Shown here piece by piece: positions 1,460 through 53,470 of a DNA stretch of 64,000 bases (the stretch's first letter is position 1; each line of letters begins with the position of its first letter). A model generated the notes under the pieces. That model was given only the letters and a program-made list of their open reading frames with translations. It was not told the origin of the DNA and did no database searches. The DNA lies in NCBI RefSeq assembly GCF_058153355.1, contig NZ_CM177019.1; one strand, 5' to 3'. Made by a program: the position numbers and the translations under genes.

Positions 1460-1484
1460 GATTATCATCACGAAGGCGATAACA

Positions 1485-2249: not shown

Positions 2250-2255
2250 CTGATA

Positions 2256-2292
2256 TATAAAAAGAAAAAGGCTGACGATTTCTCGTCAGCCT
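2256..2292 (-). terminator. Rho-independent terminator downstream of the tRNA; hairpin also follows yqjH on the + strand
   Basis: Stem AGGCTGACGA / TCGTCAGCCT with a 5-nt loop; the minus strand then reads TTTTTCTTTTT. Confidence 0.7.
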
Positions 2293-2302
2293 TTGCTATG
2301 TC

Positions 2303-2378
2303 TGGTGGCCCCTGCTGGACTTGAACCAGCGACCAAGCGATTATGAGTCGCCTGCTCTAACCACTGAGCTAAGGGGCC
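2303..2378 (-). tRNA. ileX: tRNA with CAU anticodon, likely tRNA-Ile2 (lysidine-modified); elongator tRNA-Met not excluded
   Basis: Reverse complement reads GGCCCCTTAGCTCAGTGGTTAGAGCAGGCGACTCATAATCGCTTGGTCGCTGGTTCAAGTCCAGCAGGGGCCACCA: cloverleaf, CAT anticodon, encoded CCA. Position between yqjH and mug matches K-12 ileX. Confidence 0.85.
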
Positions 2379-2502
2379 ATGGTAGCGGATTATAAAGTAA
2401 CTCCGTGTCGCAATCCAGCCATTACCGCTCGCCTGCTGTTTTTATAAACAATGTATTTTCAATCCGTTATACTTTTCCTGGTGATGTTAGAAAGGAGTAA
2501 AT

Positions 2503-3008
2503 ATGGTTGAGGATATTTTGGCTCCAGGGTTACGGGTTGTGTTTTGCGGTATCAATCCTGGTCTTTCATCCGCCGGAACTGGTTTTCCCTTTGCTCATCC
2601 GGCAAATCGCTTCTGGAAGGTGATATATCAGGCTGGGTTTACCGACCGTCAGTTGAAGCCGCAGGAGGCACAGCATCTGCTGGATTATCGTTGTGGTGTC
2701 ACCAAACTGGTAGACCGTCCAACGGTGCAAGCCAATGAAGTTTCAAAGCAGGAGCTGCACGCAGGCGGGCGTAAGCTGATTGAAAAATTGAGGATTATCA
2801 ACCACAAGCGTTGGCGATCCTCGGCAAACAGGCTTATGAGCAGGGCTTTAGCCAGCGCGGCACGCACTGGGGGAAACAAACGCTCACTATTGGTTCGACG
2901 CAGATTTGGGTACTGCCAAATCCCAGCGGTTTAAGTCGCGTTTCACTGGAGAAACTGGTTGAGGCGTATCGGGAACTGGACCAGGCGTTGGTAGTGCGTG
3001 GGCGATAA
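2503..3008 (+). pseudogene. mug: G/U mismatch-specific DNA glycosylase gene carrying a -1 frameshift in an A5 run (2783-2787)
   Basis: The frame from 2503 reads ...GRKLIEK then runs into unrelated sequence to 2934. The +2 frame from 2784 reads [22 protein letters not shown]...ALVVRGR to the stop at 3008. The two halves join only if one A is added to the homopolymer. Confidence 0.8.
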
Positions 3009-3015
3009 AAAACGC

Positions 3016-3028
3016 CACCGAAAAGGTG
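3016..3028. repeat. 13-bp target-site duplication, left copy (CACCGAAAAGGTG)
   Basis: Identical 13-mer directly flanks both ends of the IS element. Confidence 0.85.
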
Positions 3029-4454
3029 TAATGCCGATCAGTTAAGGATCAGTTGACCGATCCAGTGGCTGTGTAAGAATCCGGAAACGCTCACTTGTTT
3101 CCGGATTTTTTTATGCACATTGGACAGGCTCTTGATCTGGTATCCCGTTACGATTCTCTGCGTAACCCACTGACTTCTCTGGGGGATTACCTCGACCCCG
3201 AACTCATCTCTCGTTGCCTTGCCGAATCAGGTACTGTAACGCTACGCAAGCGCCGTCTTCCCCTCGAAATGATGGTCTGGTGTATTGTTGGCATGGCGCT
3301 TGAGCGTAAAGAACCTCTTCACCAGATTGTGAATCGCCTGGACATCATGCTGCCGGGCAATCGCCCCTTCGTTGCCCCCAGTGCCGTTATTCAGGCCCGC
3401 CAGCGCCTGGGAAGTGAGGCTGTCCGCCGCGTGTTCACGAAAACAGCGCAGCTCTGGCATAACGCCACGCCGCATCCGCACTGGTGCGGCCTGACCCTGC
3501 TGGCCATCGATGGTGTGTTCTGGCGCACACCGGATACACCAGAGAACGATGCAGCCTTCCCCCGCCAGACACATGCCGGGAACCCGGCGCTCTACCCGCA
3601 GGTCAAAATGGTCTGCCAGATGGAACTGACCAGCCATCTGCTGACGGCTGCAGCCTTCGGCACGATGAAGAACAGCGAAAATGAGCTTGCTGAGCAACTT
3701 ATAGAACAAACCGGCGATAACACTCTGACGTTAATGGATAAAGGTTATTACTCACTGGGACTGTTAAATGCCTGGAGCCTGGCGGGAGAACACCGCCACT
3801 GGATGATACCTCTCAGAAAGGGAGCGCAATATGAAGAGATCAGAAAACTGGGTAAAGGCGATCATCTGGTGAAGCTGAAAACCAGCCCGCAGGCACGAAA
3901 AAAGTGGCCGGGACTGGGAAATGAAGTGACAGCCCGCCTGCTGACCGTGACGCGCAAAGGAAAAGTCTGCCATCTGCTGACGTCGATGACGGACGCCATG
4001 CGCTTCCCCGGAGGAGAAATGGCGGATCTGTACAGTCATCGCTGGGAAATCGAACTGGGATACAGGGAGATAAAACAGACGATGCAACTGAGCAGGCTGA
4101 CGCTGAGAAGTAAAAAGCCGGAGCTTGTGGAGCAAGAGCTGTGGGGTGTCTTACTGGCTTATAATCTGGTGAGATATCAGATGATTAAAATGGCGGAACA
4201 TCTGAAAGGTTACTGGCCGAATCAACTGAGTTTCTCAGAATCATGCGGAATGGTGATGAGAATGCTGATGACATTGCAGGGCGCTTCACCGGGACGTATA
4301 CCGGAGCTGATGCGCGATCTTGCAAGTATGGGACAACTTGTGAAATTACCGACAAGAAGGGAAAGGGCCTTCCCGAGAGTGGTAAAGGAGAGGCCCTGGA
4401 AATACCCCACAGCCCCGAAAAAGAGCCAGTCAGTTGCTTAACTGACTGGCATTA
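3029..4454 (+). mobile_element. IS4 insertion sequence, 1426 bp, complete
   Basis: 18-bp imperfect terminal inverted repeats TAATGCCGATCAGTTAAG (3029-3046) and CTTAACTGACTGGCATTA (4437-4454); single transposase ORF; 13-bp direct repeats at both ends; length matches IS4. Confidence 0.9.
3113..4441 (+). CDS. insG: IS4 transposase (DDE family)
   Basis: ORF 3095-4441; start at [16 protein letters not shown] gives 442 aa. Recognised as the IS4 transposase. Confidence 0.85.
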
Positions 4455-9926: not shown

Positions 9927-11390
9927 TTAAAGCAACACCACGGGCATCCACAGTAAGCCGGTAATCACCAGCAACACGAGGAATATCAGCCCAAAAATTG
10001 CCCCCAGTCGCCAGTAATCCACCGTTGGCAGATAACCACTACCGTAGTAAATTGGACTGGGTCCGGTGGCGTATGGCGTAAGAATGCTCCCCAGACCAAT
10101 TGCCGCGCCAACCATCAGGCAGAACACGGGAAGCGGGATTTCCGGCATCGCCAGCGCGGCGGCAATCATCATCGGTGCGAGAGCGGAGGTATACGCCGTG
10201 GCGCTGGCAAAGAAGTAGCGTAGCAGATAAAACACCACAATCAACGCCACCATCACCATCGTTGGCGAATAACCGCTTAAGCTGCCTGCTAACAGTTTGC
10301 CAAACCAGCTAATAAAACCGGTGTTGTTGAGTCCGGTAGCGAGGGTGATAAGCGAGGCCAGCCAGAAGAAAACGTTCCACGCGGCTTTATTACTGACAAT
10401 GTCGTCCCAACTGATAATGCGCAGAAGCAGCATCAGCGCCACCACGCTGTAACCGACCATCGCGGCATCGATATAATCACCGCCGAAAATCCACAGCACC
10501 AGCGCGCCTACCATCAGCCCCAGCATCCGTTTTTCACGCGAACAGAGCGGGCCCATTGCCTGCAGTTCCGTCTCTGCCCAGCGTGGCACCTGATCACCAG
10601 ACTTCAGTACCGGCGGGTACAGCACGTAAGCCAGCCAGGGAACCAGCAGAACCAGTAAAATGCTGAGCGGCAACATGCCGAGAAACCAGTCGCCCCAACT
10701 CAGCGTGGCGTGAGATGCGCTTTTCATCAGGCCAATTAACAGCAAGTTAGGTGCCATCGCCGTCAGGAAAATGGCGCTGGTCACGCAGTCGGCAACAATC
10801 CCCATCCACATGATGTACGAGCCAATGCTGCGCGAACTGCTGTCGTTTGGTTGTGATTGATAGAGCGGTGGCAGGTTACGGATGATGGGATAGATAATCC
10901 CCGCACCGCGCGCCGAGTTGGACGGTGTTACAGGTGCCAGGATCAGCTCGGAGAACATCACCGCATAGCCGAGAAACAGCGTACGATGCCCCATCTTTTT
11001 CACCAGAATCAGCGCGATACGTCGCCCCAGCCCGGTTTTTTCATAGCCTGTGCCAAACATAAAGGCGGCGAAAATCAGCCAGATAACCGAATTAGAAAAA
11101 CCAGAAACCGCCCAGGAGAGGGATTTGGCGGTGAACTTAAAACCTGGCTGGGCGAGCTGCTCCGGGCTAAACAGCAGCCACGGCGAGAGAATGGCGATAA
11201 TGGAGATACCCACCATCGCCACCACGGCACCCGGCACGGGTTCGAGGATCAGTCCAACGATCACGCCAGTAAAAACGGCAAAGTAGAGCCAGGTATGACT
11301 CTCCAGCCCTGCGGGAACCGGAATTAGAGCAATAATGGCGATGACCGCCAGCGGCGCAAGGTATCGCCACCATTCAGTGGAAGGTTTCAT
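9927..11390 (-). CDS. ttdT: L-tartrate/succinate antiporter (DASS family)
   Basis: 487-aa polytopic membrane protein immediately downstream of ttdAB. Confidence 0.85.
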   Translation of the reverse strand: MKPSTEWWRYLAPLAVIAIIALIPVPAGLESHTWLYFAVFTGVIVGLILEPVPGAVVAMVGISIIAILSPWLLFSPEQLAQPGFKFTAKSLSWAVSGFSNSVIWLIFAAFMFGTGYEKTGLGRRIALILVKKMGHRTLFLGYAVMFSELILAPVTPSNSARGAGIIYPIIRNLPPLYQSQPNDSSSRSIGSYIMWMGIVADCVTSAIFLTAMAPNLLLIGLMKSASHATLSWGDWFLGMLPLSILLVLLVPWLAYVLYPPVLKSGDQVPRWAETELQAMGPLCSREKRMLGLMVGALVLWIFGGDYIDAAMVGYSVVALMLLLRIISWDDIVSNKAAWNVFFWLASLITLATGLNNTGFISWFGKLLAGSLSGYSPTMVMVALIVVFYLLRYFFASATAYTSALAPMMIAAALAMPEIPLPVFCLMVGAAIGLGSILTPYATGPSPIYYGSGYLPTVDYWRLGAIFGLIFLVLLVITGLLWMPVVLL

Positions 11391-11438
11391 CGTGTTATGC
11401 CTGCGAAAAAGGAGAGGGGGTGAGCCTCTCCGGGAGGG

Positions 11439-12044
11439 TTATTTGATGTAGTGGACGTGCTCGCAAATCTCTTCCACGATGGGATCGCGGCGTTCGGCGA
11501 ACAGCTTTTTGTTTTCGGCTATCAGGTTGTTGCCGTGGGTATCAATAGAGACAATCAGCGGACCGAACTCTTTGACCCGGCAGACCCACAGCGACTCCGG
11601 CATCCCGAGTTCTGTCCAGTGCACCTCTTCAATCTCTTCCACCTGGGTTGCCGCCAGTACTGCGCAGCCTGCCGGGAAAATCACATGCAGCGCCTTGAAT
11701 TTCTGGCAGCCTTCTTCGGTCAGCGGCCCCATTCCGCCTTTGCCGACCACCAGTTTCACGCCGGTCTGTTCGATAAATTCACGTTCAAAACTTTCCATAC
11801 GCATACTGGTTGTCGGGCCGACGGATACCATCTCCCATTTGTCGCCGTTTTTGCGCACGATGGGGCCAGCGTGGAAAATCGCTTTGCCGTTGAGATCGTA
11901 AGGGATCGGACGTTTGAGTTCGATCAAGCGACGGTGACAAACGTCACGGCAGGTTACCAGCGTACCGGTCAGGTAGATCACATCGCCGACGCGAATATCT
12001 TGCAGATCTTCAGCTTTGATCGGGGTTGTCAGGATCTTTTTCAT
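11439..12044 (-). CDS. ttdB: L(+)-tartrate dehydratase beta subunit
   Basis: 201 aa; fumarate hydratase class I C-terminal-like; start overlaps the ttdA stop. Confidence 0.88.
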
Positions 12045-26999: not shown

Positions 27000-27200
27000 A
27001 TGGATCATAGTCTTAATTCTTTAAATAACTTCGATTTCCTGGCGCGTAGTTTTGCCAGAATGCACGCAGAAGGTCGCCCGGTCGATATTCTGGCCGTTAC
27101 TGGTAACATGGATGAAGAACATAGAACCTGGTTTTGCGCACGTTATGCCTGGTATTGCCAACAGATGATGCAAACCAGAGAACTGGAATTAGAACATTGA
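27000..27200 (+). CDS. glgS: Sigma-S-dependent surface-composition / glycogen-associated regulator GlgS
   Basis: 66 aa from [57 protein letters not shown]... Confidence 0.9.
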
Positions 27201-27206
27201 TATTAC

Positions 27207-27227
27207 GGGCCGTCTGGCCCGTTTTTG
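27207..27227 (+). terminator. Rho-independent terminator after glgS, in a 34-bp convergent gap before ubiK
   Basis: GGGCCGTCTGGCCC hairpin followed by GTTTTTG. Confidence 0.7.
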
Positions 27228-27234
27228 TGGTGCT

Positions 27235-27534
27235 TTATTCTGCTTTATCAACCGGCGGGATAGCCGGAGGAGATTGAAGTTCTGCTACCGGATTATTGCG
27301 CGCTTCCAGTTCGCTGATGCGTTGTTCCAGTAACGCCAGTTTTTCACGAGTCCGTAACAGGACTTGCGTCTGAACGTCGAATTCTTCGCGGCTTACCAGA
27401 TCGAGACGCGTCAACTGCGCTTGTAGGGTTTGGCGGATTTTTTTCTCCACATCTTCCCCGAACTCCCTGATTCCTTTAGGCATTGATTCGTGAACCTGGC
27501 GAGCGATTTGCTCAATTTTTTTCGGGTCAATCAT
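27235..27534 (-). CDS. ubiK: Ubiquinone biosynthesis accessory factor UbiK (BMFP family)
   Basis: About 99 aa from [55 protein letters not shown]... Confidence 0.85.
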
Positions 27535-27655
27535 TGTAGTTTCCCTGTACTGATAGGTGTTGAGTGCCATTGTAGTGCGATAAGGGTAAGTCATAAACCA
27601 GAATTATGTGAAGCTATGCGTTGCTGCCGCTAATCATTAGCGTTATAGTGAATCC

Positions 27656-29825: not shown

Positions 29826-29940
29826 CGACAACTCCTTATAAATCTTCACCTTCAGGCAGATCGTCAAAATAACTGATGATCATCATCATTGTTATCCGGG
29901 TTCTTACTCCGCCGAACAAGCGTATTGTGAGGATATCAAA

Positions 29941-36975: not shown

Positions 36976-38871
<1,896 letters not shown>

Positions 38872-38900
38872 TAATCCTCCCGCCAGAAGAATAAAACATA

Positions 38901-38932
38901 GCCCGGTATACAAGTGTATACCGGGCTTTTTT
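38901..38932 (+). terminator. Rho-independent terminator of parE, at the left boundary of the accessory island
   Basis: GCCCGGTATAC-AAG-TGTATACCGGGC hairpin followed by TTTTTT; the stop codon of the convergent receptor gene lies 3 nt beyond the T-tract. Confidence 0.8.
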
Positions 38933-38934
38933 GA

Positions 38935-41076
38935 TCAAAATTCCATTTTCACCGTGAATTGCACTTCACGAGGATCGCCAATCTGGTTGCCCAGATTATT
39001 TGTGGCGATGGAAGAGGTGTAATACGTTTTATCAAACAGGTTTTTGACGTTTAATTGCAGTGTGACCGGATACTGCAATTTCATTTTGTATGCGGCGAAG
39101 GCATCGGCAACAAAATAGCCTGGCAGATAATAGTCAGCCCCATTGGTTGCCGAACGACGGCTTACACCATGTCCACCACCGCCAAACGTCAGTGTGTTAT
39201 TGCCTGGCATGTTATGAATATCATAGGTCAGGAATAGCGAACCGGTATGACGAGGAACATTCGGCAATGGTTTCCCTGCATAATCAGGATCCTCCAGAAC
39301 CTTAGCATCGGTATAGCCGTAGCTGGCAATGATATTAATGTTTTCAGTTAATGCTCCCGCAAGGTCGACTTCTACCCCTCTTGAACGAACACGGCCTGCC
39401 GTTTTGGCAATGGTTTCATCACCAACACTTTCGGTATACAACACATTACGTTTATGGATATCAAACAGCGCAATATCTGCGGTGATACCATCGAATAGCT
39501 CGAATTTTGCCCCGACTTCGTAAGCATTAGATGATTCTGGTGGCAGATCGCCAATGTAGCTGGCAATTGACGATTGCGGCATAAATGTTTGCGAATAATT
39601 GGCAAATAAGGATACCGATGGCGTCAGTTTGTAGACCAATCCCAGTTTGGGAGTCCATTGTTCATCGCGGCTGTCAGTATTGACATTAAAAGGACGGCCT
39701 TTACCCGCATACTGCGTGTAATACTGATAGCGGAGCCCGGCGACGGCAATCCAGTTATCGGTCAGATAGAGTGCGTCCTGTGCATACGCTGAGTAGCTCT
39801 CCTGTTTGATCGTCTGATCACTGTCCGACGCCGAAACCGTTGTGCATTTGCTGGTAATACCATAAACGGGGTTGTAGATATTGAAATCTTTAGCTTTTTT
39901 ACAGCGAATCATATCTGTGCGCAGAAGATCATAATATTCATATGACACCCCACCCAGAATCTCATTATAGAATCCAGCAACATCAACATTCCCTTGCAGA
40001 TCCGCACGAGTAGCATGCATACGCTGGGTAGATCCTTGAGTTGCATCAACACGCCGTGTCAGCGTTCCTGTCGTTGCATCATACGCGGTAACGCGAGCTT
40101 GATTATCGCTGTATTTATCCTGGCTGTAGCTGTAATCAAAGCGCGCTGTCCACTGGCTATTGAGATGATATTCTGCGTTGAGTTGCGCCAGATCGGACTG
40201 ACCATCTGTAATATTAAACGGTTCGTCAAAACGTATTTTTCGATCAACGTTTACGGGCTGTTTCGTCGTAAGGTCGAAAATCGTTCCACGATCGAACGGC
40301 GTTTTATAATCCCGATGAGAATAGAGCATGGTTACTGTTGCATTATCACCAAACCAGGTGAGTGATGGAGCAATAAATGTACTGCGCTCTTTACCGAAGT
40401 TTCGCCAGTAATCTTCATCTTGCACTTCCCCAATAAGGCGATACGCCAGCTGAGTGCCTTCAATGGGACCTGTGATATCCAATTGCCCAGTGCCTCCGCC
40501 AAAACTGGAGGAAGTGGCTGAGACAGTACCATGGAATGTTTTTTCCGGGCGCTTTGTCACGACGTTAATCAGTCCGCCAGGATCGAGAATGCCATACAGC
40601 GTGGAGGCCGGACCTTTTAGCACTTCCACACGCTCTGTGGCGGCGTTGAAACTGCGAGGAAGTACAGTTCGCAGGCCGTTGGTCATGATGGAGCCATCCC
40701 GGTTAGCACCAAACCCACGACGTACAAAAGCATCCTGAGTCCCGCCTAATGTATTGGTCTGTACCACGTTACTGACGTTATAAAGTGCCTCATCCAGCGT
40801 CGTCGCATTCTGATTTTCCAGAACTTGATCGCTAACCGTATTGACCACCTGCGGGATATCCAGCATCGGCATATCGGTTAATGTCGCCGTGGAGGTGCTC
40901 AGAGGTTGATAACCATCGGTCGCCTCAGTTGCGGTATTTGCATCCGCTGTAACAGTGATTGTTTCGCCATCTTTGGTCGTTACAGTGTCGGTTGCATGAA
41001 TCATCGGTGCTGCAAAGAGCAGTGAAAAGAGCGCTCGACCTTTGAGTCCTGAGAATGAAGGTGTGAACATAGCCAT
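38935..41076 (-). CDS. TonB-dependent outer-membrane receptor, siderophore type
   Basis: 713 aa; N-terminal signal peptide, TonB-box-like ETITVTA, plug-domain motifs, beta-barrel with C-terminal aromatic residue (...VKMEF). Confidence 0.85.
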   Translation of the reverse strand: MAMFTPSFSGLKGRALFSLLFAAPMIHATDTVTTKDGETITVTADANTATEATDGYQPLSTSTATLTDMPMLDIPQVVNTVSDQVLENQNATTLDEALYNVSNVVQTNTLGGTQDAFVRRGFGANRDGSIMTNGLRTVLPRSFNAATERVEVLKGPASTLYGILDPGGLINVVTKRPEKTFHGTVSATSSSFGGGTGQLDITGPIEGTQLAYRLIGEVQDEDYWRNFGKERSTFIAPSLTWFGDNATVTMLYSHRDYKTPFDRGTIFDLTTKQPVNVDRKIRFDEPFNITDGQSDLAQLNAEYHLNSQWTARFDYSYSQDKYSDNQARVTAYDATTGTLTRRVDATQGSTQRMHATRADLQGNVDVAGFYNEILGGVSYEYYDLLRTDMIRCKKAKDFNIYNPVYGITSKCTTVSASDSDQTIKQESYSAYAQDALYLTDNWIAVAGLRYQYYTQYAGKGRPFNVNTDSRDEQWTPKLGLVYKLTPSVSLFANYSQTFMPQSSIASYIGDLPPESSNAYEVGAKFELFDGITADIALFDIHKRNVLYTESVGDETIAKTAGRVRSRGVEVDLAGALTENINIIASYGYTDAKVLEDPDYAGKPLPNVPRHTGSLFLTYDIHNMPGNNTLTFGGGGHGVSRRSATNGADYYLPGYFVADAFAAYKMKLQYPVTLQLNVKNLFDKTYYTSSIATNNLGNQIGDPREVQFTVKMEF

Positions 41077-41176
41077 TTAGTCTGTTATCCCAAAAACTCG
41101 CGGATTGTCGCGAGTGAAAATTGTTTCTTATTGCTCACTAAGCACTATCCGTTTGTTATTTCGCCATCGGATATGT

Positions 41177-41195
41177 AATTGAGAATCATTCAATC
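41177..41195. promoter_or_regulatory. Candidate Fur box in the divergent control region of the island
   Basis: AATTGAGAATCATTCAATC; the core TGAGAATCATTCA matches the Fur consensus TGATAATCATTAT at 11 of 13 positions. Lies in a 373-bp AT-rich region between the receptor gene and the ABC operon. Confidence 0.45.
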
Positions 41196-41449
41196 ACGCG
41201 GTAATGTAGTAGTAAATGAGAAATAACAAAAAATTGCTACATGTGTTTTTATGAAAGGTTTATACAATTTAATTGTTTTTAATTTATTGATATTTAATGT
41301 TTTTATTTGTATGTGCAAAAATATTTTACCTGTTATTTACCTTGTTTTTGTGTGGCTTTTAACTGCTTGACTACTACATTTTGTGGCGTCAAACTCTCAA
41401 AGGAGAATGAGTTTTATTTTTGTTTGTCTTTGATTAAGTTGGCGTACAC

Positions 41450-42259
41450 GTGGCACATAACGCAAAAGGGCAGGGGCTGATCCTCGACAATGTTTCTGCC
41501 GGGTATCACAAGAAAATCATTGTTGATGGTGTTTCTTTCTCCGTTCCCACAGAAAAAATGACCGTTCTGGTTGGGGCAAACGGCTGTGGAAAGTCGACGC
41601 TGCTCAGCACCATTGCTCGTATCTTGCAACCCATGGGCGGTTCGATATTGCTTGATGGCAACGCGATTCACGAGCAACCAACGAAAGCGTTATCCCGTAG
41701 ACTTGGGATCTTGCCGCAGTCGCCATTATTGCCGGAGGGCTTAACCGTTTATGAACTGGTGTCGCGTGGGCGTTTTCCCTGGCAGAATTTCATTCGTCAA
41801 TGGAGCGATGCCGATGAGCTGGCGGTAGAAGAGGCCCTGAAATTAACGGGTACGCAGGAGTTTGCACATTTACCTGTTGAAAAACTCTCTGGTGGGCAGC
41901 GCCAGCGTTGCTGGATTGCGATGGTGTTGGCGCAAAAGACGCCTTATATCCTGCTGGATGAACCCACAACATGGCTTGATTTACGTTATCAGGTTGAAAT
42001 TCTTGAGTTATTACATGATTTAACGCGTCATCACGGGCGTACAGTCGTCGTGGTGTTGCATGATCTGAATTTTGCCGTCAATTATGGCGATACGTTGATA
42101 TTTTTACGCCAGGGGAAAGTGGTGCGTGTGTTGAATGAGGGGGAGCATTGCACGCCTGAGCTGGTAAAAGCGGTCTTTGACGTTGATGTTCACGCATCAA
42201 TAAATCCTCTGACGGGAAAGCCGTTCTTCATGCCGTTTCGTGGTGTAGAAAAAGTATGA
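41450..42259 (+). CDS. ABC transporter ATP-binding protein, FepC/FhuC/FecE-like
   Basis: 269 aa; Walker A GANGCGKST, signature LSGGQRQR, Walker B ILLDEPT, H-loop; apparent GTG start. Confidence 0.85.
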   Translation: MAHNAKGQGLILDNVSAGYHKKIIVDGVSFSVPTEKMTVLVGANGCGKSTLLSTIARILQPMGGSILLDGNAIHEQPTKALSRRLGILPQSPLLPEGLTVYELVSRGRFPWQNFIRQWSDADELAVEEALKLTGTQEFAHLPVEKLSGGQRQRCWIAMVLAQKTPYILLDEPTTWLDLRYQVEILELLHDLTRHHGRTVVVVLHDLNFAVNYGDTLIFLRQGKVVRVLNEGEHCTPELVKAVFDVDVHASINPLTGKPFFMPFRGVEKV

Positions 42260-43239
42260 TGCGCACAGGGCTGGTTACTGTAATTTTCCTCGCCTTACTG
42301 CTGGTGGGATGCGTGGTATATCCAGGGATTGGTGCCCGATTTATTGCACCACAAACGGTGTTGCAGGCATTTCTTCATTTTGATCCGCAAAACTTCGATC
42401 ACAACGTAATTGTAAGACTCCGTTTGCCGCGTTTAGCGGCAGCATTGCTTACCGGTGCTTCTCTTGGTGTTGCTGGTGCTTTGTTGCAGGCTGTCATTCG
42501 TAACCCATTGGGGGAGCCACATATTTTAGGCTTAAATGCCGGAGCCGCTCTTGCTGTCGTTGCCGCCAGTGCGCTTGGACTGGCCTTTCCGATTGGACGC
42601 CCACTGCTGGCATCTACGGGGGGCGCGTTATTGTTCCTGTTGATATTGCTGCTTTCCTCCGCAGGGCGTTCAGGGTTAACGCCAATGAAAGTTACTTTAT
42701 GCGGCGTGGCGCTATCGGCGTTCGTGTCCTCAATAACGGCTGCAATCCTGATTCTTGACGAACAAACACTGCTGGCGATGCGGACATGGCTAGCAGGTGA
42801 TTTAGCGGGGCAGGATTGGGCGACGCTGGGTACGTCCGCCTGGTTTTCTCTGGGGGGATTTGTGTTAGCCCTTTACCTTGCACCCTCCCTTAACATGTTG
42901 GCACTGGGCGATCGCATGGCGCAGGGGCTGGGCGTCTCTGTATTCCGCACGCGAACATTCACCCTGCTTGCGATCGCGTTGCTCTGTGGCGCAGCCGTAT
43001 CGATTGCTGGCCCCATTGGTTTTGTCGGCCTGCTAGTACCGCAGATTGTCCGGCGTCTGGTATCAGCGGATCTGTGCGTTCTGCTCCCTCTTTCAGCTTG
43101 TGTCGGCGCACTTTTGTTATTACTGGCAGATATTATTGCCCGTACGCTTTTCACGCCCCATGAGTTAGCGACCGGTGTCATGACGGCGTTAGTTGGTGCG
43201 CCTGTTTTTGTCATTATGGCGACGAGGATGTTCAAATGA
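42256..43239 (+). CDS. ABC transporter permease, FecCD family (iron-siderophore/B12 type)
   Basis: 327-aa polytopic membrane protein; start overlaps the ATPase stop (ATGA). Confidence 0.85.
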   Translation: MMRTGLVTVIFLALLLVGCVVYPGIGARFIAPQTVLQAFLHFDPQNFDHNVIVRLRLPRLAAALLTGASLGVAGALLQAVIRNPLGEPHILGLNAGAALAVVAASALGLAFPIGRPLLASTGGALLFLLILLLSSAGRSGLTPMKVTLCGVALSAFVSSITAAILILDEQTLLAMRTWLAGDLAGQDWATLGTSAWFSLGGFVLALYLAPSLNMLALGDRMAQGLGVSVFRTRTFTLLAIALLCGAAVSIAGPIGFVGLLVPQIVRRLVSADLCVLLPLSACVGALLLLLADIIARTLFTPHELATGVMTALVGAPVFVIMATRMFK

Positions 43240-44285
43240 GTCGGATAATGAACGTCGGGCTACGCCCACTACGTGTTGGTAAGTTTTCGACACTGGTACG
43301 CCCTAAAAATCTGCTGTTGCTTGGTGGGCTGTTCCTGCTTGCGGTTGGAATACTGATATTCGGTCTGATGCAGGGTTCTTTCTCTGTTCCGGCATCGGAA
43401 GTAGGACGAGCGTTGTTTGCTCCAGAAAACGTAAGCACAGACGCACGTTATATTGTGCAGGATATTCGCTTGCCGAGAGTCATCATGGCATTGCTATGCG
43501 GGGCCATGTTAGGTATGGCAGGGGCCGCAATGCAATCCATTGCACGTAACGGCCTTGCCGATCCTGGTTTAATCGGCGTCAAAGAAGGATGTAGCGTGGC
43601 TGTGCTGTGGCTGATTTTCCAGTTTCCAATGCTGGGAATGTTCTGGCGTCCAGTGGCTGGTCTTGCTGGCGGCCTGTTGGTGGCTTTAATCGTGATTTTT
43701 TGTGCGCGCGATATTTCCCGCCCGCGATTTGTTCTGATTGGTATTGGTGTTTCCTGGTTTTTCGCCGCCGGTATCGGTGTATTTATGACCACTGCAGATG
43801 TTCGAGATGTACAAACTGCATTGATGTGGTTATCGGGAAGCCTGCATGCAGCTAACTGGATGTTAGTCGGTATTTCAGCCTGTTGGATGTTGCCAGCCGC
43901 TCTTTTATTGCTGTTCACCGCCAGGAAGGCGGATATCGCTCTGCTTGGTCATCAGGTGGCAACCGGGTTAGGCGTGAATAGTTCTCGCCTGGCGTTGTTA
44001 CGTGTCGCCGCACCCATAATCCTGACAGCCGTCTGCGTTTCGTGTGTTGGTAACATAGGTTTTGTCGGATTGATAGCACCCCATATATCACGTTTTATTC
44101 TACGTGGCGGGCAGACGACATTACTGCTGGGGAGCGCGGTATCGGGGGCGTTGTTAGTTATTCTGGCGGATAGCATTGGTCGTTTGGCTTTTTTGCCTTT
44201 GCAACTGCCTGCCGGAATCATTATCTCACTGATTGGTGGACCATTTTTTTTGCTACTGCTCTGGCAGCGCAGGAACAGTTTTTAA
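43236..44285 (+). CDS. ABC transporter permease, FecCD family, second subunit
   Basis: 349-aa polytopic membrane protein; start overlaps the upstream stop (ATGA). Confidence 0.85.
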   Translation: MSRIMNVGLRPLRVGKFSTLVRPKNLLLLGGLFLLAVGILIFGLMQGSFSVPASEVGRALFAPENVSTDARYIVQDIRLPRVIMALLCGAMLGMAGAAMQSIARNGLADPGLIGVKEGCSVAVLWLIFQFPMLGMFWRPVAGLAGGLLVALIVIFCARDISRPRFVLIGIGVSWFFAAGIGVFMTTADVRDVQTALMWLSGSLHAANWMLVGISACWMLPAALLLLFTARKADIALLGHQVATGLGVNSSRLALLRVAAPIILTAVCVSCVGNIGFVGLIAPHISRFILRGGQTTLLLGSAVSGALLVILADSIGRLAFLPLQLPAGIIISLIGGPFFLLLLWQRRNSF

Positions 44286-44295
44286 CGGGAGTTAT

Positions 44296-45243
44296 ATGCG
44301 TTTATTTTTTTCTCTGCTGATACTGTTGTCATTTTTTTCCCGTGCAACAGAACCTGTTCAGGTATTTACTGATGATTTAGGGCGCAAAGTCACTGTTCCT
44401 GCTCATCCAAAGAGAATTGTCTCTTTACACGATCTTGATATCACTATTCCTCTGATTGAGCTCGGTGTACCTCCTGTCGCCAGCCACGGGCGAACTCGGC
44501 CTGACGGTAGCCATTTCATTCGATCTGGCGCGTTATTGACAGGTGTCGACTTTGATAATTCATCGATCGCCTTTATTGGTACCGCTGATATTGATATTGA
44601 AGCGATTGTGGCGGCAAAGCCTGACCTGATCATCACAGAACCGACCCGTAATACGCCCATTGAACAACTTGAAAAAATTGCGCCCACGGTGAGCATTGAT
44701 CATCTCAAAGGGGGCGCGCCAGAAATCTATCGCAAGCTGGCAGAACTTACAGGAACGCAGTCGCAGCTGGCGATACTTGAACGCCGCTATCAGGCACAAA
44801 TCAATGCGCTGAAGGCGACGCTGGACAGCCAAAAAATAACGGTATCGGTGATTCAGGCAAACCAGGGAAAAATTAATGTGATGCATAGCTATCATTCGCT
44901 GGGGCGGGTATTACGCGATGCTGGTTTTCGTTTTCCGCCGCTGATTGAGAGCATTCCTGAAGGTGGGCGAATGGATGTGAGCGCGGAGCGTTTACCTGAA
45001 CTGGATGCCGATTTTGTTTTTGCAACCTGGCGCGGTGACACCGGTGGTAAACCTCAGGATGAGCTGGCAGCAATGGAAAAAGTCATGCCGGGATGGTGTC
45101 AGTTTCTGACTGCCTGTCGTTCCGGGCGTTATGTGCTGATTTCTCGTGAAGAGGCAATTTCTAACTCCTTTGCATCTCTGGGGCTGATGGCTGCGCAGAT
45201 ACAATCACAAATTGCAGGGCGACCTCTACCGGAGGCTAAATGA
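44296..45243 (+). CDS. Periplasmic substrate-binding protein, class III (siderophore/heme/B12-type)
   Basis: 315 aa from MRLFFSLLILLSFFSRATEP (signal peptide); typical size and architecture; GGGA ribosome-binding site upstream of the ATG at 44296. Confidence 0.8.
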   Translation: MRLFFSLLILLSFFSRATEPVQVFTDDLGRKVTVPAHPKRIVSLHDLDITIPLIELGVPPVASHGRTRPDGSHFIRSGALLTGVDFDNSSIAFIGTADIDIEAIVAAKPDLIITEPTRNTPIEQLEKIAPTVSIDHLKGGAPEIYRKLAELTGTQSQLAILERRYQAQINALKATLDSQKITVSVIQANQGKINVMHSYHSLGRVLRDAGFRFPPLIESIPEGGRMDVSAERLPELDADFVFATWRGDTGGKPQDELAAMEKVMPGWCQFLTACRSGRYVLISREEAISNSFASLGLMAAQIQSQIAGRPLPEAK

Positions 45244-46127
45244 TCCAGAAAGATAAAGCGCGGGTTGATATTTTTGGTGAGCGTTTTCGCACTCGCGCGA
45301 GTCAGTTAACGCCTGGGTTAAGAGCTGTCGCCAGCTACATTAATGAGCATCGTGAAGTGGTACTCGAGCAAACGGCGATGGAAATTGCGGCCACGTTGAA
45401 CACTTCCGATGCCACAGTTATCAGGGCTATACAGGCCCTGGGGTTTGCCGGGCTGCGTGATCTGAAACGCACTCTGGAACAGTGGCTTGGTCCAGCCCTT
45501 AGTTCCAGCGAAAAGATGTCTACGACGGTGAGTAACTTGACGAGCGATGTTAACACCGCAATCGACTTTGTTCTTGAAGGGCATTTGTATACCTGTAATG
45601 TCCTGTCAGAGCCTGAAAACCGCCACGCGCTTGCGCAAGCTGTAGCGTTGTTGGTGCAGGCACGGCAAGTCGCAATTTTTGGCATTGGCGCTTCGGGTAT
45701 TCTGGCGGACTATACCGCACGACTATTCAACCGCATAGGTTTGCCTGCCACGGCACTAAACCGTACGGGTATTGGCCTTGCCGAGCAACTGATCGCGCTT
45801 CAACGTGGCGATGTTCTGATCATGATGGCGCAAAAATCTGCGCACCGGGAAGGGGTGACGACGCTTCGTGAGGCGAGGCGGCTGGGGATCCCTGTTATTT
45901 TGCTGACAAACGCGCTGGATTCACGTTTTAGCAAAGACGCCAGTATCGTGATTCATGTTCCGCGCGGGGATGAAAAAGGGAAAACGCCGCTACATGGTAC
46001 GGTATTGTTGTGTCTGGAAATGATTGTCTGGTCGGTAGCTTCCGCAGTGCCGCAGCGTGCGGTTAAAACCATTAAGCGAATTAACGATTTCCATCGAGGA
46101 CTGAAAACGGGAAGAAAGAATGGCTAA
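45240..46127 (+). CDS. RpiR-family transcriptional regulator (N-terminal HTH_6 + C-terminal SIS sugar-phosphate-binding domain)
   Basis: 295 aa; HTH region (...QTAMEIAATLNTSDATVIRAIQALGFAGLRDLK) followed by a SIS-like fold (VAIFGIGASGILADYTARLFNRIG...); start overlaps the stop of the binding-protein gene. Confidence 0.75.
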   Translation: MIQKDKARVDIFGERFRTRASQLTPGLRAVASYINEHREVVLEQTAMEIAATLNTSDATVIRAIQALGFAGLRDLKRTLEQWLGPALSSSEKMSTTVSNLTSDVNTAIDFVLEGHLYTCNVLSEPENRHALAQAVALLVQARQVAIFGIGASGILADYTARLFNRIGLPATALNRTGIGLAEQLIALQRGDVLIMMAQKSAHREGVTTLREARRLGIPVILLTNALDSRFSKDASIVIHVPRGDEKGKTPLHGTVLLCLEMIVWSVASAVPQRAVKTIKRINDFHRGLKTGRKNG

Positions 46128-46171
46128 TCTGGGCTGAGACCGGTAGCAGCACCGGCCTCTTTTCAGGAATG

Positions 46172-46486
46172 TTAAATCCCCGGTTGCAGAATACGAATAT
46201 TCATCTCCAGCACGTCGCCTTTTACGGCTTCGCTGTACGCCTTCATGTGCGGGGTTTGCAGGTGCGCTTCAAGGTGCGCGATGCTTTCCCACTGCTCAAT
46301 CATCACGATAGAATCCGGTGCCATAGACTGGAAACTCACGCCAGCAGCGCAATCCACCATTGGCGCATAGCCGTGGCAACCTTCTTCTTTCAGTACGGTT
46401 GGAACGATTTTAGCAAACTGATCCAACACTGCCTGACGGTGATGTTGACCTGGACGAGTACGGATTTCTGCGATTACTGTAATCAT
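46172..46486 (-). CDS. ygiN: Quinol monooxygenase (ABM domain)
   Basis: 104 aa, MITVIAEIRTRPGQHHRQAVLDQFAKIVPTVLKEEGCHGYAPMVD... Confidence 0.92.
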   Translation of the reverse strand: MITVIAEIRTRPGQHHRQAVLDQFAKIVPTVLKEEGCHGYAPMVDCAAGVSFQSMAPDSIVMIEQWESIAHLEAHLQTPHMKAYSEAVKGDVLEMNIRILQPGI

Positions 46487-47098: not shown

Positions 47099-47159
47099 TT
47101 TTTAACCTCAAGGTGAGACGTTTGCCGACTATAGTACGTCACAGAGCGGTACGGTGAAA

Positions 47160-47180
47160 TTAGCAAAATGTGCAAAGTCT
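47160..47180. promoter_or_regulatory. Candidate mar/sox/rob-type box upstream of mdaB
   Basis: Reverse complement contains GCACATTTTGCTAATT (GCAC-N5-GCTAAT), resembling the marbox consensus; flanked by duplicated AATTAGCAAAA motifs at 47158-47170 and 47187-47199. Confidence 0.35.
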
Positions 47181-47360
47181 TTTGCGAATTTAGCAAAAGT
47201 CTGATCTTGCTCCGATTCACCGATGCAGGATAAATATTTTCTGAAAATGACAATACTGATAGCCATTCCTCATAATTCCTACTCGCACCGGATTAATTTA
47301 CAGGTTTGGTTCGGTTTTTTGGGGATTAAAAATATGGCGTTGGATAAGTAAAAATGAAAA

Positions 47361-47381
47361 TATCAACGCGTCACGTTGATA
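47361..47381. promoter_or_regulatory. Perfect 8-bp inverted repeat TATCAACG-N5-CGTTGATA upstream of ygiZ (candidate operator)
   Basis: Seen directly in sequence, 34 nt upstream of the ygiZ start. Confidence 0.4.
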
Positions 47382-47414
47382 ATTATAAATGGATTTTTAT
47401 GAGCGTGCTAACAT

Positions 47415-47744
47415 ATGTTAAAGCATAAAATTCAAACAATATTTGAAGCTCTGTTATATATAATGCTTACTTATTGGTTAATAGATGCTTTTTTTGCATT
47501 CAATAAGTATGACTGGATGCTTGAGTCGGGAGACAATATTTGCAGTATACCTTCCGTTTCAGGCGAAGATCGTATATTGCAAACAATGATTGCAGCATTT
47601 TTTCTTCTGACGCCACTTATTATTATCTTAAGAAAACTCTTTGTGCGAGAAATGTTTGAGTTTTGGTTATATGTAATCTCGCTCGTTATTTGTTTGGTTT
47701 GTGGTTGGTGGCTTTTTTGGGGACGGTTTATATTTTGCTATTAA
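47415..47744 (+). CDS. ygiZ: Small inner-membrane protein
   Basis: 109-110 aa with three hydrophobic helices; position between mdaB and qseC. Confidence 0.8.
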   Translation: MLKHKIQTIFEALLYIMLTYWLIDAFFAFNKYDWMLESGDNICSIPSVSGEDRILQTMIAAFFLLTPLIIILRKLFVREMFEFWLYVISLVICLVCGWWLFWGRFIFCY

Positions 47745-47789
47745 TAAAATCTATGAGAGTCGTTTTAACGGCTCTCATAGACAGAGAAG

Positions 47790-49139
47790 TTACCAGCTTA
47801 CTTTCGCCTCAAATCCACCTTGTTCCGCATTCCCAAACTCAACATTCATGCCATGCAGCTTGGCGATTCGCTGGACAATTGAAAGCCCAAGTCCACTGCC
47901 GGTAGCGGTTTGTCCGGGTGGGCGATAGAAGCGTTCGCCAATTCTCGCCAGTGCCTCTGGTGTCACACCGGGGCCGTTATCCCTCACGATGAAATTATCG
48001 GCATTCAGCGTGACGTCCACCACGCTACCTTGTGGACTGTAGCGCACGGCGTTATCCAGCAAATTTCGCACCAACAAACTTAGCAATAGCGGTTGTCCGG
48101 TGCGTTTGATGCCGTGGGCATTGAGTGTCAGTCGCACGTCAATTTTCGCTTGCTGCGCCGTGTGGTAAATATCCATCACCGACGATTGCAGGAGATCTTC
48201 AAGCGGGATCTCCGCGACGTCCTGAAGGTTATCCAGTGAGTCCAGCCGCGATAGCGTGAGCAGTTGATCAACCAGACGAGTAGCACGATCGATTCCGGAA
48301 TGTAATTGAAGCAGCGCTTTTTTCCGCGCCTGCGGATCATCGTCAGAGAGCTGCGCAACTTCGGTTTGCACTTTCAGCGCCGTTAACGGGCTACGAAGTT
48401 CGTGAGCTGCGTCGGAGGTAAAGCGTCGTTCACGAACCATCATCGCATGTGTGCGGGCGAACAGTTGATTCAACGACTCAACCAGTGGACGCACTTCGCT
48501 GGGTACGCCCGTCGCGTTTAGTGGTTTTTCCGAGTCAGGGTCACGCATACGTAGTGCCAGCGCCAGTTTGTTCAGCGGCGCGAGTTCTCGTCCCAATAGT
48601 ACCATCATAATGATTAACATAATCGGCAGTGCGACCAGCCACGGGATCAATTGCCCGGCAACAATCGCCAGCGCCATGTCTTCACGGTATTCCCATTCCT
48701 GACCAACAACGATGCGATATTTGCCATCAGGTGAGGTCATCCAGACAAAACGCCAGGGATCGTCTTCACCGACCAGTTGCCCGTCAGCAAAACCTTCCCG
48801 TTGATAGCTATAGGGAATATCTTCTCCGTTATCGCCATCGTTAAGGACCATTCTGCCGTCGTGGGTAAAGATGGCAAAGGTCAGCGCATCGTCATCAACA
48901 TGACCGTGTTTTAATTTATTTGGCGTCTGTGCCATGCGATCCGCCGCGTTGATTTCGTTGAGATCGAGCGTACTTAACCGTTTGGCAAACAGCATCAGTT
49001 GGGTGTCGAACAACTCATCGACGTTATCCGTTGTTTGTTTCCAGGCGACAAAGCTGGAAAGCAGCCAGGTCACCGAGGCCAGAATTAAAAAGATTAGCGT
49101 CAGCCTGACTCGCAGACTAAGACGTTGGGTAAATTTCAT
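47790..49139 (-). CDS. qseC: Sensor histidine kinase QseC
   Basis: 449 aa; two transmembrane helices, H-box [10 protein letters not shown], HATPase_c. Confidence 0.93.
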
Positions 49140-50391: not shown

Positions 50392-50874
50392 ATGAAAAAC
50401 CTGACACTGGATGTAAATATTATCGATTTCCCATCAATCCCTGTGGCGATGTTGCCACATCGCTGTAGCCCTGAATTGCTCAACTACAGCGTGGCGAAAT
50501 TTATCATGTGGCGTAAAGAAACGGGGCTTTCTCCTGTTAACCAAAGCCAGACTTTTGGTGTCGCCTGGGATGACCCTGCCACCACCGTACCGGAAGCGTT
50601 TCGCTTTGATATCTGCGGCAGCGTTAACGAACCGATTCCCGATAATCGTTATGGCGTGAGTAATGGTGAACTTACCGGGGGACGTTATGCCGTGGCCCGC
50701 CACGTTGGCGAGCTGGACGATATTTCACATACGGTATGGGGCATCATTCGCCACTGGCTGCCTGCAAGCGGCGAGAAAATGCGTAAAGCACCGATTCTGT
50801 TTCACTACACCAATCTTGCCGAAGGGGTAACAGAGCAGCGACTGGAAACGGATGTTTATGTGCCGTTGGCGTGA
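50392..50874 (+). CDS. ygiV: GyrI-like domain transcriptional regulator
   Basis: 160 aa. Confidence 0.85.
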   Translation: MKNLTLDVNIIDFPSIPVAMLPHRCSPELLNYSVAKFIMWRKETGLSPVNQSQTFGVAWDDPATTVPEAFRFDICGSVNEPIPDNRYGVSNGELTGGRYAVARHVGELDDISHTVWGIIRHWLPASGEKMRKAPILFHYTNLAEGVTEQRLETDVYVPLA

Positions 50875-51211
50875 TGAAGAATCTTTACCGGAGTGTGAGC
50901 CAAATCACTCGCTATCAGTTTAAGTTAACGATGCCACAGGCGTATTGTTGTCCGCTCAGACTCTGACGGCACAGGATTTTGTCCTTCCACACAGAAACCG
51001 CCATTGGCGGTTTTCCGCTGCATAATCCGCAGGATTATGTCTACAGCAAAGAGTTGTATATCAAGGCACATTGATGCCTTTATCGCCGTCGGAGCACGTC
51101 CGGCGGCGCTATTCACGCTGATCTCCTGTGACTCGACGCGGCAGATAATGTAGTATCTCCGGCAATATTGCCCCTTTGAAGGCTGGCGAATAAGTTGAGG
51201 AATCAGAATTA

Positions 51212-53470
51212 ATGAGCGATATGGCAGAGCGCCTTGCGCTACATGAATTTACGGAAAACGCCTACTTAAATTACTCCATGTACGTAATCATGGACCGTGC
51301 GTTGCCGTTTATTGGTGATGGTCTGAAACCTGTTCAGCGCCGCATTGTGTATGCGATGTCTGAGCTGGGCCTGAATGCCAGCGCCAAATTTAAAAAATCG
51401 GCCCGTACCGTCGGTGACGTACTGGGTAAATACCATCCGCACGGCGATAGCGCTTGTTATGAAGCGATGGTCCTGATGGCGCAGCCGTTCTCTTACCGTT
51501 ATCCGCTGGTTGATGGTCAGGGGAACTGGGGCGCGCCGGACGATCCGAAATCGTTCGCAGCAATGCGTTACACCGAATCCCGGTTGTCGAAATATTCCGA
51601 GCTGCTATTGAGCGAGCTGGGGCAGGGGACGGCTGACTGGGTGCCAAACTTCGACGGCACTTTGCAGGAGCCGAAAATGCTACCTGCCCGTTTGCCGAAC
51701 ATTTTGCTTAACGGCACCACCGGTATTGCCGTCGGTATGGCGACCGATATTCCACCGCATAACCTGCGTGAAGTGGCTCAGGCAGCAATCGCGTTAATCG
51801 ACCAGCCGAAAACCACGCTCGACCAGCTGCTGGATATCGTGCAGGGGCCGGATTATCCGACCGAAGCGGAAATCATCACCTCGCGTGCCGAGATCCGTAA
51901 AATCTACGAAAATGGTCGCGGTTCTGTGCGTATGCGCGCGGTGTGGAAGAAAGAAGACGGTGCGGTGGTTATCAGCGCATTGCCGCATCAGGTTTCTGGT
52001 GCGCGCGTACTGGAGCAAATTGCTGCGCAAATGCGCAACAAAAAGCTGCCGATGGTTGACGATCTGCGCGATGAGTCTGACCACGAGAACCCGACCCGTC
52101 TGGTGATTGTGCCGCGTTCCAACCGCGTGGATATGGATCAGGTGATGAATCACCTTTTCGCCACCACCGATCTGGAAAAGAGCTATCGTATTAACCTCAA
52201 TATGATCGGTCTGGATGGGCGTCCGGCGGTGAAAAACCTGCTGGAAATTCTCTCCGAATGGCTGGTGTTCCGCCGCGATACCGTGCGCCGCCGACTGAAC
52301 TATCGTCTGGAGAAAGTCCTCAAGCGCCTGCATATCCTTGAAGGTTTGCTGGTGGCGTTTCTCAATATCGACGAAGTGATTGAGATCATTCGCAATGAAG
52401 ATGAACCGAAACCGGCGCTGATGTCGCGGTTTGGCCTTACGGAAACCCAGGCGGAAGCGATCCTCGAATTGAAACTGCGTCATCTTGCCAAACTGGAAGA
52501 GATGAAGATTCGCGGTGAGCAGAGTGAGCTGGAAAAAGAGCGCGACCAGTTGCAGGGCATTCTGGCGTCCGAGCGTAAAATGAATAACCTGCTGAAGAAA
52601 GAACTGCAGGCAGACGCGCAAGCCTACGGTGACGATCGTCGTTCGCCGTTGCAGGAACGCGAAGAAGCGAAAGCGATGAGTGAGCACGACATGCTGCCGT
52701 CGGAACCCGTCACCATTGTGCTGTCGCAGATGGGCTGGGTACGCAGCGCTAAAGGCCATGACATCGACGCGCCGGGCCTGAATTATAAAGCGGGTGATAG
52801 TTTCAAAGCAGCGGTGAAAGGTAAGAGCAACCAACCGGTAGTGTTTGTTGACTCCACCGGTCGTAGCTATGCTATCGACCCGATTACGCTGCCGTCGGCG
52901 CGTGGTCAGGGCGAACCGCTCACCGGCAAATTAACGTTGCCGCCTGGGGCGACCGTTGACCATATGCTGATGGAAAGCGACGATCAGAAACTGCTGATGG
53001 CTTCCGATGCGGGTTACGGTTTCGTCTGTACCTTTAACGATCTGGTGGCGCGTAACCGTGCAGGTAAGGCTTTGATCACCTTACCGGAAAATGCCCATGT
53101 TATGCCGCCGGTGGTGATTGAAGATGCTTCCGATATGCTGCTGGCAATCACTCAGGCAGGCCGTATGTTGATGTTCCCGGTAAGCGATCTGCCGCAGTTG
53201 TCGAAGGGTAAAGGCAACAAGATTATCAACATTCCGTCGGCAGAAGCCGCGCGTGGCGAGGATGGTCTGGCGCAACTGTACGTTCTGCCGCCGCAAAGCA
53301 CGCTGACCATTCATGTTGGGAAACGCAAAATTAAACTGCGTCCGGAAGAGCTACAGAAAGTCACTGGCGAACGTGGACGCCGCGGTACGTTGATGCGCGG
53401 TTTGCAGCGTATCGATCGTGTCGAGATCGACTCTCCTCGCCGCACCAGCAGCGGCGATAGCGAAGAGTAG
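51212..53470 (+). CDS. parC: DNA topoisomerase IV subunit A
   Basis: 752 aa; [49 protein letters not shown]... Confidence 0.96.

Follow-up and report, generated by a model that had tools for sequence, protein, structure and literature searches.

The window analysed here is a stretch of 64,000 nucleotides (nt) of Escherichia coli DNA (contig NZ_CM177019.1, assembly GCF_058153355.1). Between the genes parE and ygiN an open reading frame (ORF) scan of the window found six ORFs, at the coordinates of an earlier note made from the sequence alone. Family models agree with its description of a minus-strand receptor gene divergent from a plus-strand operon. This block is the chromosomal fit locus, in which fitA is divergent from fitBCDE-fitR, at its usual site between parE and ygiN. 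The fit locus itself is already known, having been published since 2006, and a crystal structure of FitE exists. What this analysis adds, from sequence comparison, is a candidate operator of the repressor FitR, a seemingly atypical SIS pocket in FitR, and an estimate of the breadth and apparent age of the cassette. Taken as a whole, it is very probable that the block is a fit locus which serves TonB-dependent uptake of a ferric chelate under the control of Fur and FitR, and that it is an old, non-mobile resident of its site. Genes and edge features of the locus are as follows.

36979-38871, stop codon at 38871: parE (TIGR01055, 1248 bits)
38900-38927, unstranded: terminator-like bidirectional hairpin (12-bp stem and T-tract) between convergent parE and fitA
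38935-41076, minus strand: fitA, TonB-dependent outer-membrane siderophore receptor, 713 aa (TIGR01783; fitA quantitative PCR primers at 40256-40332)
41450-42259, plus strand: fitB, ATP-binding cassette (ABC) transporter ATPase, FecE/FepC/FhuC-like, GTG start (NCBIfam; primers at 41607-41693; RefSeq start identical)
42256-43239, plus strand: fitC, FecCD-family permease (profile models and published primers); start overlaps the fitB stop (ATGA)
43236-44285, plus strand: fitD, second FecCD-family permease; start at ATG 43236 (overlapping) or at the RefSeq ATG 43248
44296-45243, plus strand: fitE, periplasmic class III (Peripla_BP_2) siderophore-binding protein, 315 aa, with signal peptide (PDB 3BE5/3BE6 match)
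45240-46127, plus strand: fitR, RpiR/MurR-family repressor with HTH_6 and SIS domains (Pfam; primers); auto-repressor of fit according to PMC2593036
46140-46155, unstranded: hairpin CCGGT-AGCAGC-ACCGG, followed by CCTCTTTTCA, between convergent fitR and ygiN
46172-46486, minus strand: ygiN, 104-aa ORF named after RefSeq

All four junctions within the operon had been described as ATGA overlaps. Such overlaps are present at fitB/fitC (42256) and at fitE/fitR (45240). The fitC/fitD junction is ambiguous: an ATGA occurs at 43236, and RefSeq puts the fitD start at an ATG 12 nt downstream (43248). At fitD/fitE there is no overlap; the TAA of fitD ends at 44285 and is followed by a 10-nt gap containing GGGAG and by the ATG at 44296, the first codon of a typical signal peptide (MRLFFSLLILLSFFSRA).

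In K-12 the six genes are absent and parE and ygiN are directly adjacent, separated by a 47-nt spacer, as the earlier note had stated; both hairpins also lie where it put them. Gapped local alignment shows that the hairpin of the K-12 spacer and that at 38900-38927 are homologous (in only 1 of 500 shuffles is the score as high). Since the terminator hairpin is common to both, the indel starts directly after the parE terminator, which is where the block had been said to begin. A left edge at the parE stop codon, obtained by position-by-position comparison with K-12, was dropped for the same reason. Judged from the alignment, the 38900-38927 hairpin is flank and marks the left edge of the indel. 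On the opposite side the fitR stop lies 44 nt from the ygiN stop, the distance that had been noted. The right-hand hairpin with its tail (46140-46165) is common to E. coli MB06173 (26 nt, 96%), which carries other DNA at the site; this hairpin is therefore flank as well, not cargo. The allele of MB06173 (locus L006, 3073-5068) is a third type of parE-ygiN junction, composed of insertion sequence (IS) IS1A and a 5'-truncated major facilitator superfamily (MFS) transporter gene, and its parE terminator differs. The parE-ygiN site thus holds alternative cargo. This MFS fragment is not homologous to the oligosaccharide MFS gene found 3' of fitR in Enterobacter soli (see below).

The fit system was described by Ouyang and Isaacson (Infect Immun 2006; Open Microbiol J 2008, PMC2593036). 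The primers in Table 2 of PMC2593036 cover fitA, fitB, fitC, fitD, fitE, fitR and the fit promoter, and 17 of 17 map to the block with 0-1 mismatch and with gene, order and strand as expected. The match of FitE to PDB entries 3BE5/3BE6 spans the complete mature protein (E 2e-195, 651 bits, residues 19-315 to 1-297), and these entries are cited as E. coli FitE in PMC2966073. Moreover, a 7193-bp "fit operon" has been placed in the region ygiN..parE of strain BEN2908 (PMC12928451, 2026), and CFT073 genes c3771-c3775 are given as the Fit pathway, a member of the direct Fur regulon (PMC7157518). The fit system had been proposed tentatively for this block, and primers, FitE structure and published position all match it. 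In gene content, gene order and orientation, in chromosomal site and in control region the block agrees with the E. coli fit system, and the difference is nothing of substance: the copy in the window shares 97-98.5% identity with those of other E. coli. Identity of 99% or more is reached by only 2 of 5424 matching records, which points to an uncommon lineage. The fitA gene serves as a marker gene for extraintestinal and adherent-invasive E. coli (PMC9409007).

The proteins have the composition of a type II ABC importer with its receptor: a Peripla_BP_2 protein with signal peptide, FecCD permeases and an ABC ATPase are encoded in one operon. FitA scores 371.7 bits on the TonB-dependent siderophore receptor model TIGR01783 (cut-off 223.5), in line with the ferric-siderophore-type gene content noticed earlier. 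It consists of Plug and TonB_dep_Rec domains only (22-strand-barrel type), with a signal peptide and a TonB box, ETITVTA, near the mature N-terminus; no N-terminal signalling domain was found in the domain scan. The solved receptors nearest to FitA are FoxA, FetA and FhuA, and the binding proteins nearest to FitE, after FitE itself, are YfiY and FhuD-type proteins. FecE is the best model for FitB, and FecC and FecD are the best ones for FitC/FitD. All of FitA-FitE, however, score well below the cut-offs of the equivalog models (FhuA, FoxA, FhuE, Fiu, FecA, FepA and CirA; FecBCDE, FepBCDG and FhuBCD), and substrate specificity is therefore not transferable by homology. PMC2593036 assigns the role of outer-membrane receptor to FitA and that of periplasmic binding protein to FitE, with FitC and FitD as permeases and FitB as ATPase. 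Going by family membership, an iron-siderophore complex would cross the outer membrane through FitA at the expense of TonB energy and would be bound by FitE in the periplasm; FitC and FitD would form the type II ABC channel and FitB would hydrolyse ATP. The substrate would be a siderophore made by other organisms, and not enterobactin.

Two known systems resemble Fit most closely. With Fhu (fhuA, fhuCDB) it shares a TonB-dependent receptor, a class III binding protein, FecCD-type permease, an ATPase and Fur control. The TonB box of FhuA, DTITVTA, is nearly identical to that of FitA. On the other hand, FitA reaches 225 bits on the FhuA model against an equivalog cut-off of 803 bits, Fit has two separate permeases in place of the fused FhuB, and the Fit receptor is divergent from the transporter operon, which has its own RpiR-type repressor. 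With Fec (fecIR-fecABCDE) Fit shares the best models for ATPase and permeases, the two separate permeases and a regulator of its own besides Fur. In contrast to Fec, FitA is devoid of a signalling domain and the fit locus of a FecI/FecR sigma/anti-sigma pair, so that control is by a cytoplasmic repressor instead of surface signalling; scores also stay under the Fec equivalog cut-offs.

Distribution of the block in E. coli was determined by megablast of positions 38800-46300 against 5426 complete genomes. The full block is present in 1870 of them (34%), O157 included, and the rest have an empty site. Each of these genomes carries it at one chromosomal place, and among the 5807 places matched by block or flank just one is plasmid-borne. 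The genome closest to the window, 2020CK-00188 (locus L003), has a block that is 99.6% identical; its fitE is annotated as frameshifted (10497-11443). The fit system is thus decaying in at least one near relative, and fitE is intact in the window.

For other taxa, a FitE scan with one genome per species yielded 74 loci, onto which the six Fit proteins, ParE, YgiN and MdaB were mapped. The six-gene cassette occurs in about 70 species. Complete fitA<>fitBCDE-fitR architecture was found in Escherichia (coli, whittamii and sp. MOD1), Enterobacter, Lelliottia, Huaxiibacter and Silvania, further in Kosakonia, Citrobacter, Klebsiella, Raoultella, Kluyvera and Phytobacter, and also in the Alphaproteobacteria Rhizobium, Neorhizobium, Azorhizobium and Xanthobacter (FitE 64-71%, FitR 51-54% identity). 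In Enterobacter, Lelliottia, Huaxiibacter and Silvania the cassette is directly downstream of parE, and ygiN-mdaB comes next, either directly or past about 5.5 kb of unrelated sugar genes. Fit proteins of these four genera are 72-90% identical to those of E. coli, and YgiN and MdaB are 80-90% identical.

The additional segment of about 5.5 kb between fitR and ygiN is found in many Enterobacter-group genomes (loci L012, L019, L021-L025, L027, L061 and L074). In Enterobacter soli (L012, 10910-16264) it encodes an AraC-type regulator, an oligosaccharide MFS transporter and two proteins of 629 and 395 aa that have no family hit. At least there, the parE-ygiN intergenic site has therefore gained a second, unrelated module. 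Other insertions separate fitE from fitR (L065, 9898-11058; L068, 9885-11033; L071, 9950-11901) and carry PepSY_TM or PstS-like genes; minus-strand ORFs in the high-GC locus L071 were discarded as artefacts. Neither the AraC/oligosaccharide-MFS module of Enterobacter soli nor the weakly scoring PstS-like binding proteins of Affinibrenneria and Azorhizobium gave a usable hint to the substrate. A PepSY_TM membrane protein lies between fitE and fitR in Affinibrenneria and Acerihabitans. The siderophore reductases FoxB and PiuB belong to the PepSY_TM family, and this insertion is consistent with processing of a ferric siderophore.

The divergent control region (41077-41449) is AT-rich, as observed before (GC 0.34-0.35, against about 0.52 for the window). 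Published work established that FitR represses in both the fitA and the fitB direction and shifts the intergenic fragment in electrophoretic mobility shift assay (PMC2593036). Fur-Fe2+ and FitR repress both divergent promoters independently (strains i484 and CFT073; PMC2593036, PMC7157518), and derepression in fur and fitR mutants is additive (23-, 2.2- and 52-fold; PMC2593036). The exact FitR and Fur sites were stated by the authors of PMC2593036 to be not known. A conservation profile of 51 Enterobacteriaceae spacers contains only four conserved blocks, namely two arms (41203-41218 and 41366-41379) and two Fur-like blocks (41173-41196 and 41399-41419). The elements within them are these.

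41173-41196, minus strand: fitA-side block TGATTGAATGATTCTCAATTACAT, putative extended -10 (TGn-TTGAAT) and Fur-like box, 12/19 (conservation)
41205-41216, minus strand: arm A TTTACTACTACA, overlapping the putative fitA -35; candidate FitR operator
41367-41378, plus strand: arm B TTGACTACTACA, overlapping the putative fitB -35; candidate FitR operator
41399-41421, plus strand: fitB-side block AAAGGAGAATGAGTTTTATTTTT, Fur-like box, 13/19, just 3' of the putative -10

A generic promoter scan reported no sigma-70 site in the spacer, and the -35 and -10 elements named here are our reading of the conserved blocks. The presumed -35 hexamers, TTTACT or TTGACT, lie inside the arms. On the fitA side the Fur-like block overlaps the extended -10 (TGaTTGAAT); on the fitB side the promoter would consist of TTGACT, a 17-nt spacer and a weak -10, CAAACT. 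The Fur-like blocks are invariant across Enterobacteriaceae and are positioned at -10/+1. They are absent from the alphaproteobacterial spacers. Alphaproteobacteria are not known to use Fur for iron control, and the absence of these blocks fits with that. Against a Fur assignment it should be said that matches of 12/19 to 13/19 to the Fur consensus are common by chance in the window. Scoring against the consensus is thus uninformative, and the Fur-like boxes were therefore assigned by conservation and position. Fur would bind these blocks at -10/+1 of both promoters. Elsewhere in the window, the best match to the Fur consensus (16/19, CATAATGATTAACATAATC) is at 48606-48624, inside the qseC coding region, and weaker clusters (14/19) are at 1414-1438, 27629-27647 and 29875-29896.

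The two arms contain a 12-nt element, TT(G/T)ACTACTACA, which was found first as an inverted repeat in the spacer. In the 64-kb window the 12-mer has two sites only, both in the fit spacer; the arms are inverted and their starts are 162-166 bp apart, according to the arm positions counted. All 61 orthologous spacers examined have the element on the fitA side as well as on the fitB side, six alphaproteobacterial (high-GC) loci included. Fit spacers totalling 31.5 kb contain 129 exact copies of the 9-mer ACTACTACA, where chance would give 0.24, and the remaining approximately 1.12 Mb (67 loci) contain only two. One of these two outside matches is inside a coding region, and the other is directly upstream of a second siderophore receptor gene located beside fitR in Neorhizobium. 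In Neorhizobium alkalisoli (L070) this second TonB-dependent receptor gene (1115-3103, minus strand) lies between fitR and fitA and is preceded by TTGACTACTACATTCATGTTTG at 3105-3125, the same as the promoter element of its own fitA, which suggests an expanded FitR regulon. Distances between arms fall into classes of 166, 178 and 188 bp, differing by about one helical turn; such steps were judged insufficient for DNA looping, and no looping is claimed.

TT(G/T)ACTACTACA is probably the FitR operator, and we put it forward as a candidate. FitR would bind the element at the -35 of each promoter. With FitR at -35 and Fur at -10/+1, the proposed arrangement would explain independent and additive repression. 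If it is correct, a change of ACTACTACA to AGTAGTAGA would abolish the FitR shift and derepress both fitA and fitB. Literature searches by motif and by CFT073 locus tags returned no description of the operator or of the Fit substrate, and neither of the two 12-mers was found in the papers searched.

FitR consists of an HTH_6 domain (PF01418, residues 15-81) and a SIS domain (PF01380, residues 138-247). It shares this composition, as well as repression of an adjacent operon, with the RpiR/MurR/HexR regulators (the MurR/RpiR-family regulator PDB 8k3b, the transcriptional regulator PDB 4ivn and E. coli MurR). It differs from them in controlling an iron-uptake operon and in having the phosphate-binding motif of the SIS domain replaced. 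While the first SIS loop is retained (GIGASG), the canonical motif S-x-S-G-x-S/T is absent from FitR and MMAQKSAHREG stands in its place; AQKSAHRE aligns with SQSGRSK of 8k3b (ISQSGRSK) and with SSSGSTK of 4ivn, which are the solved proteins nearest to FitR. The signature MM(A/G)Qxx(A/P)HREG, together with LNRTG and EQL, is kept in 72 orthologues from Alpha- to Gammaproteobacteria. Since the signature is conserved, the effector is probably specific and conserved, too. On this comparative basis the effector of FitR is probably not a classical phosphosugar. A more far-reaching proposal is that fit is an ancient cross-class cassette (Enterobacteriaceae, Rhizobiales) in which FitR reads the 12-nt operator and accommodates a non-phosphosugar ligand, plausibly the siderophore or its breakdown product, in the MMxQxxxHREG pocket; we regard this as possible, though tentative.

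The block had been introduced as strain-specific cargo, and it could be a recent, horizontally acquired island inserted between parE and ygiN. The strain-specific part stands insofar as the block is missing in K-12, in BL21 and in about two thirds of complete E. coli genomes, and is too narrow for a cassette that is carried by 34% of E. coli genomes and about 70 species. Several observations weigh against a purely resident history. GC at third codon positions is lower in fitA (0.45) and fitE (0.43) than in flanking genes (0.52-0.61), and the near-complete alphaproteobacterial copies, at 64-71% identity, mean that the cassette is clearly capable of lateral spread and has moved laterally in the more distant past. 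In addition, fitB-fitR is at least 99% identical to FDAARGOS_1253, against about 96-97% for the genome around it, a contrast suggestive of exchange among lineages of E. coli; such exchange is explicable by homologous recombination via conserved flanks. A recent island is nevertheless unlikely. No integrase, IS or transposase, tRNA, att-like or flanking repeats were found at the block, its overall GC (0.491) is near that of the rest of the window (0.519), the cassette has the same parE-adjacent position in several genera with divergence similar to that of neighbouring core genes, and the 1870 positive genomes have it in one place each, with the single plasmid-borne place mentioned above. The window is about 96-97% identical both to K-12 and to a fit-positive strain and parE 93-94%; the block, at 97-98.5%, is therefore no more divergent than its surroundings. 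The earlier framing as an island is thus overstated. The simplest reading is that fit is an old resident of the parE-ygiN site which was lost in some (K-12-like) E. coli lineages and is exchanged between lineages by homologous recombination through conserved flanks.

Uptake of a ferric siderophore has to be weighed against import of other cargo, that is cobalamin, heme, another metal bound to a metallophore (Co, Cd, Ni, Zn) or free metal. Here the points against our assignment are that the Fit substrate is not enterobactin and was never identified (PMC5907654), so that the word "siderophore" rests on family membership and iron/Fur regulation, and that one citing paper gives the 2006 work as Fe2+, Co2+ and Cd2+ uptake. 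Moreover, FitR comes from a sugar-sensing regulator family that is atypical of iron systems, and "Metal-pseudopaline receptor CntO" is among the top PDB names for FitA; the entries so named are, however, identical in sequence to entries named FoxA ferrioxamine receptor. The outcome that would have refuted the earlier note, a receptor of the B12 or heme families, is not observed: FitA passes the siderophore-receptor cut-off and stays far below those for B12 (TIGR01779, 45.3 vs 599.7 bits) and for heme/hemoglobin (TIGR01785 and TIGR01786, 97.3 vs 316.9 and 84.8 vs 323.8 bits). The solved relatives nearest to FitE bind hydroxamate, catecholate or carboxylate siderophores, fit expression is repressed by iron and Fur, and a PepSY_TM protein, presumably of the FoxB/PiuB family, is inside the operon in two genera. 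We thus hold cargo other than a ferric siderophore to be very unlikely. As to the 12-nt element, it might instead be conserved as part of a promoter only (-35 and spacer) or be used by another regulator, with FitR binding elsewhere. The element includes a good -35 hexamer (TTGAC), so that its conservation could partly reflect promoter function; it is not an obvious palindrome, unlike many RpiR-family operators; its link to FitR comes from comparative sequence, and PMC2593036 left the FitR site open. Yet seven invariant bases reach past the -35 hexamer into the promoter spacer, and the identical 12-mer is kept at both promoters between classes that differ in other promoter and Fur elements. FitR is the sole regulator travelling with the cassette, a third copy of the element precedes another receptor gene beside fitR, and the spacer has no further conserved block besides the Fur-like ones. 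We therefore consider a role other than FitR operator improbable.

Some features of the surroundings deserve mention. The parE gene (36979-38871) has only 93-94% nucleotide identity to its counterparts in K-12, O157 and further E. coli; this locally restricted, highly divergent patch may have been acquired from an Escherichia lineage that is more remote. A stretch of 34% GC (47100-47800) between mdaB and qseC contains ygiZ (47415-47744), which is polymorphic for presence and absence. The window, K-12, 2020CK-00188 and MB06173 have the gene; O157 Al Ain, FDAARGOS_1253 and A10 lack it, and in these three about 110 nt separate mdaB from qseC. Compared with K-12, the window is without the yqiGHI/ygiL fimbrial cluster and the mqsR-mqsA-ygiS segment (27200-27304 and 50874-51212), and parC is directly 3' of ygiV, as in strain A10.

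The comparative data recast fit as a widespread cassette that is located beside parE in several genera and occurs in Rhizobiales too, rather than as cargo specific to E. coli. The candidate 12-nt element and the non-canonical pocket of FitR bear on two points left open by the 2008 paper, the FitR site and the FitR ligand. If FitR does respond to a non-phosphosugar ligand through this pocket, fit would represent a switch for iron uptake that is inducible by the substrate and uses an RpiR scaffold, and FitR would provide a direct handle on the substrate of a transporter that has been orphaned for 20 years.

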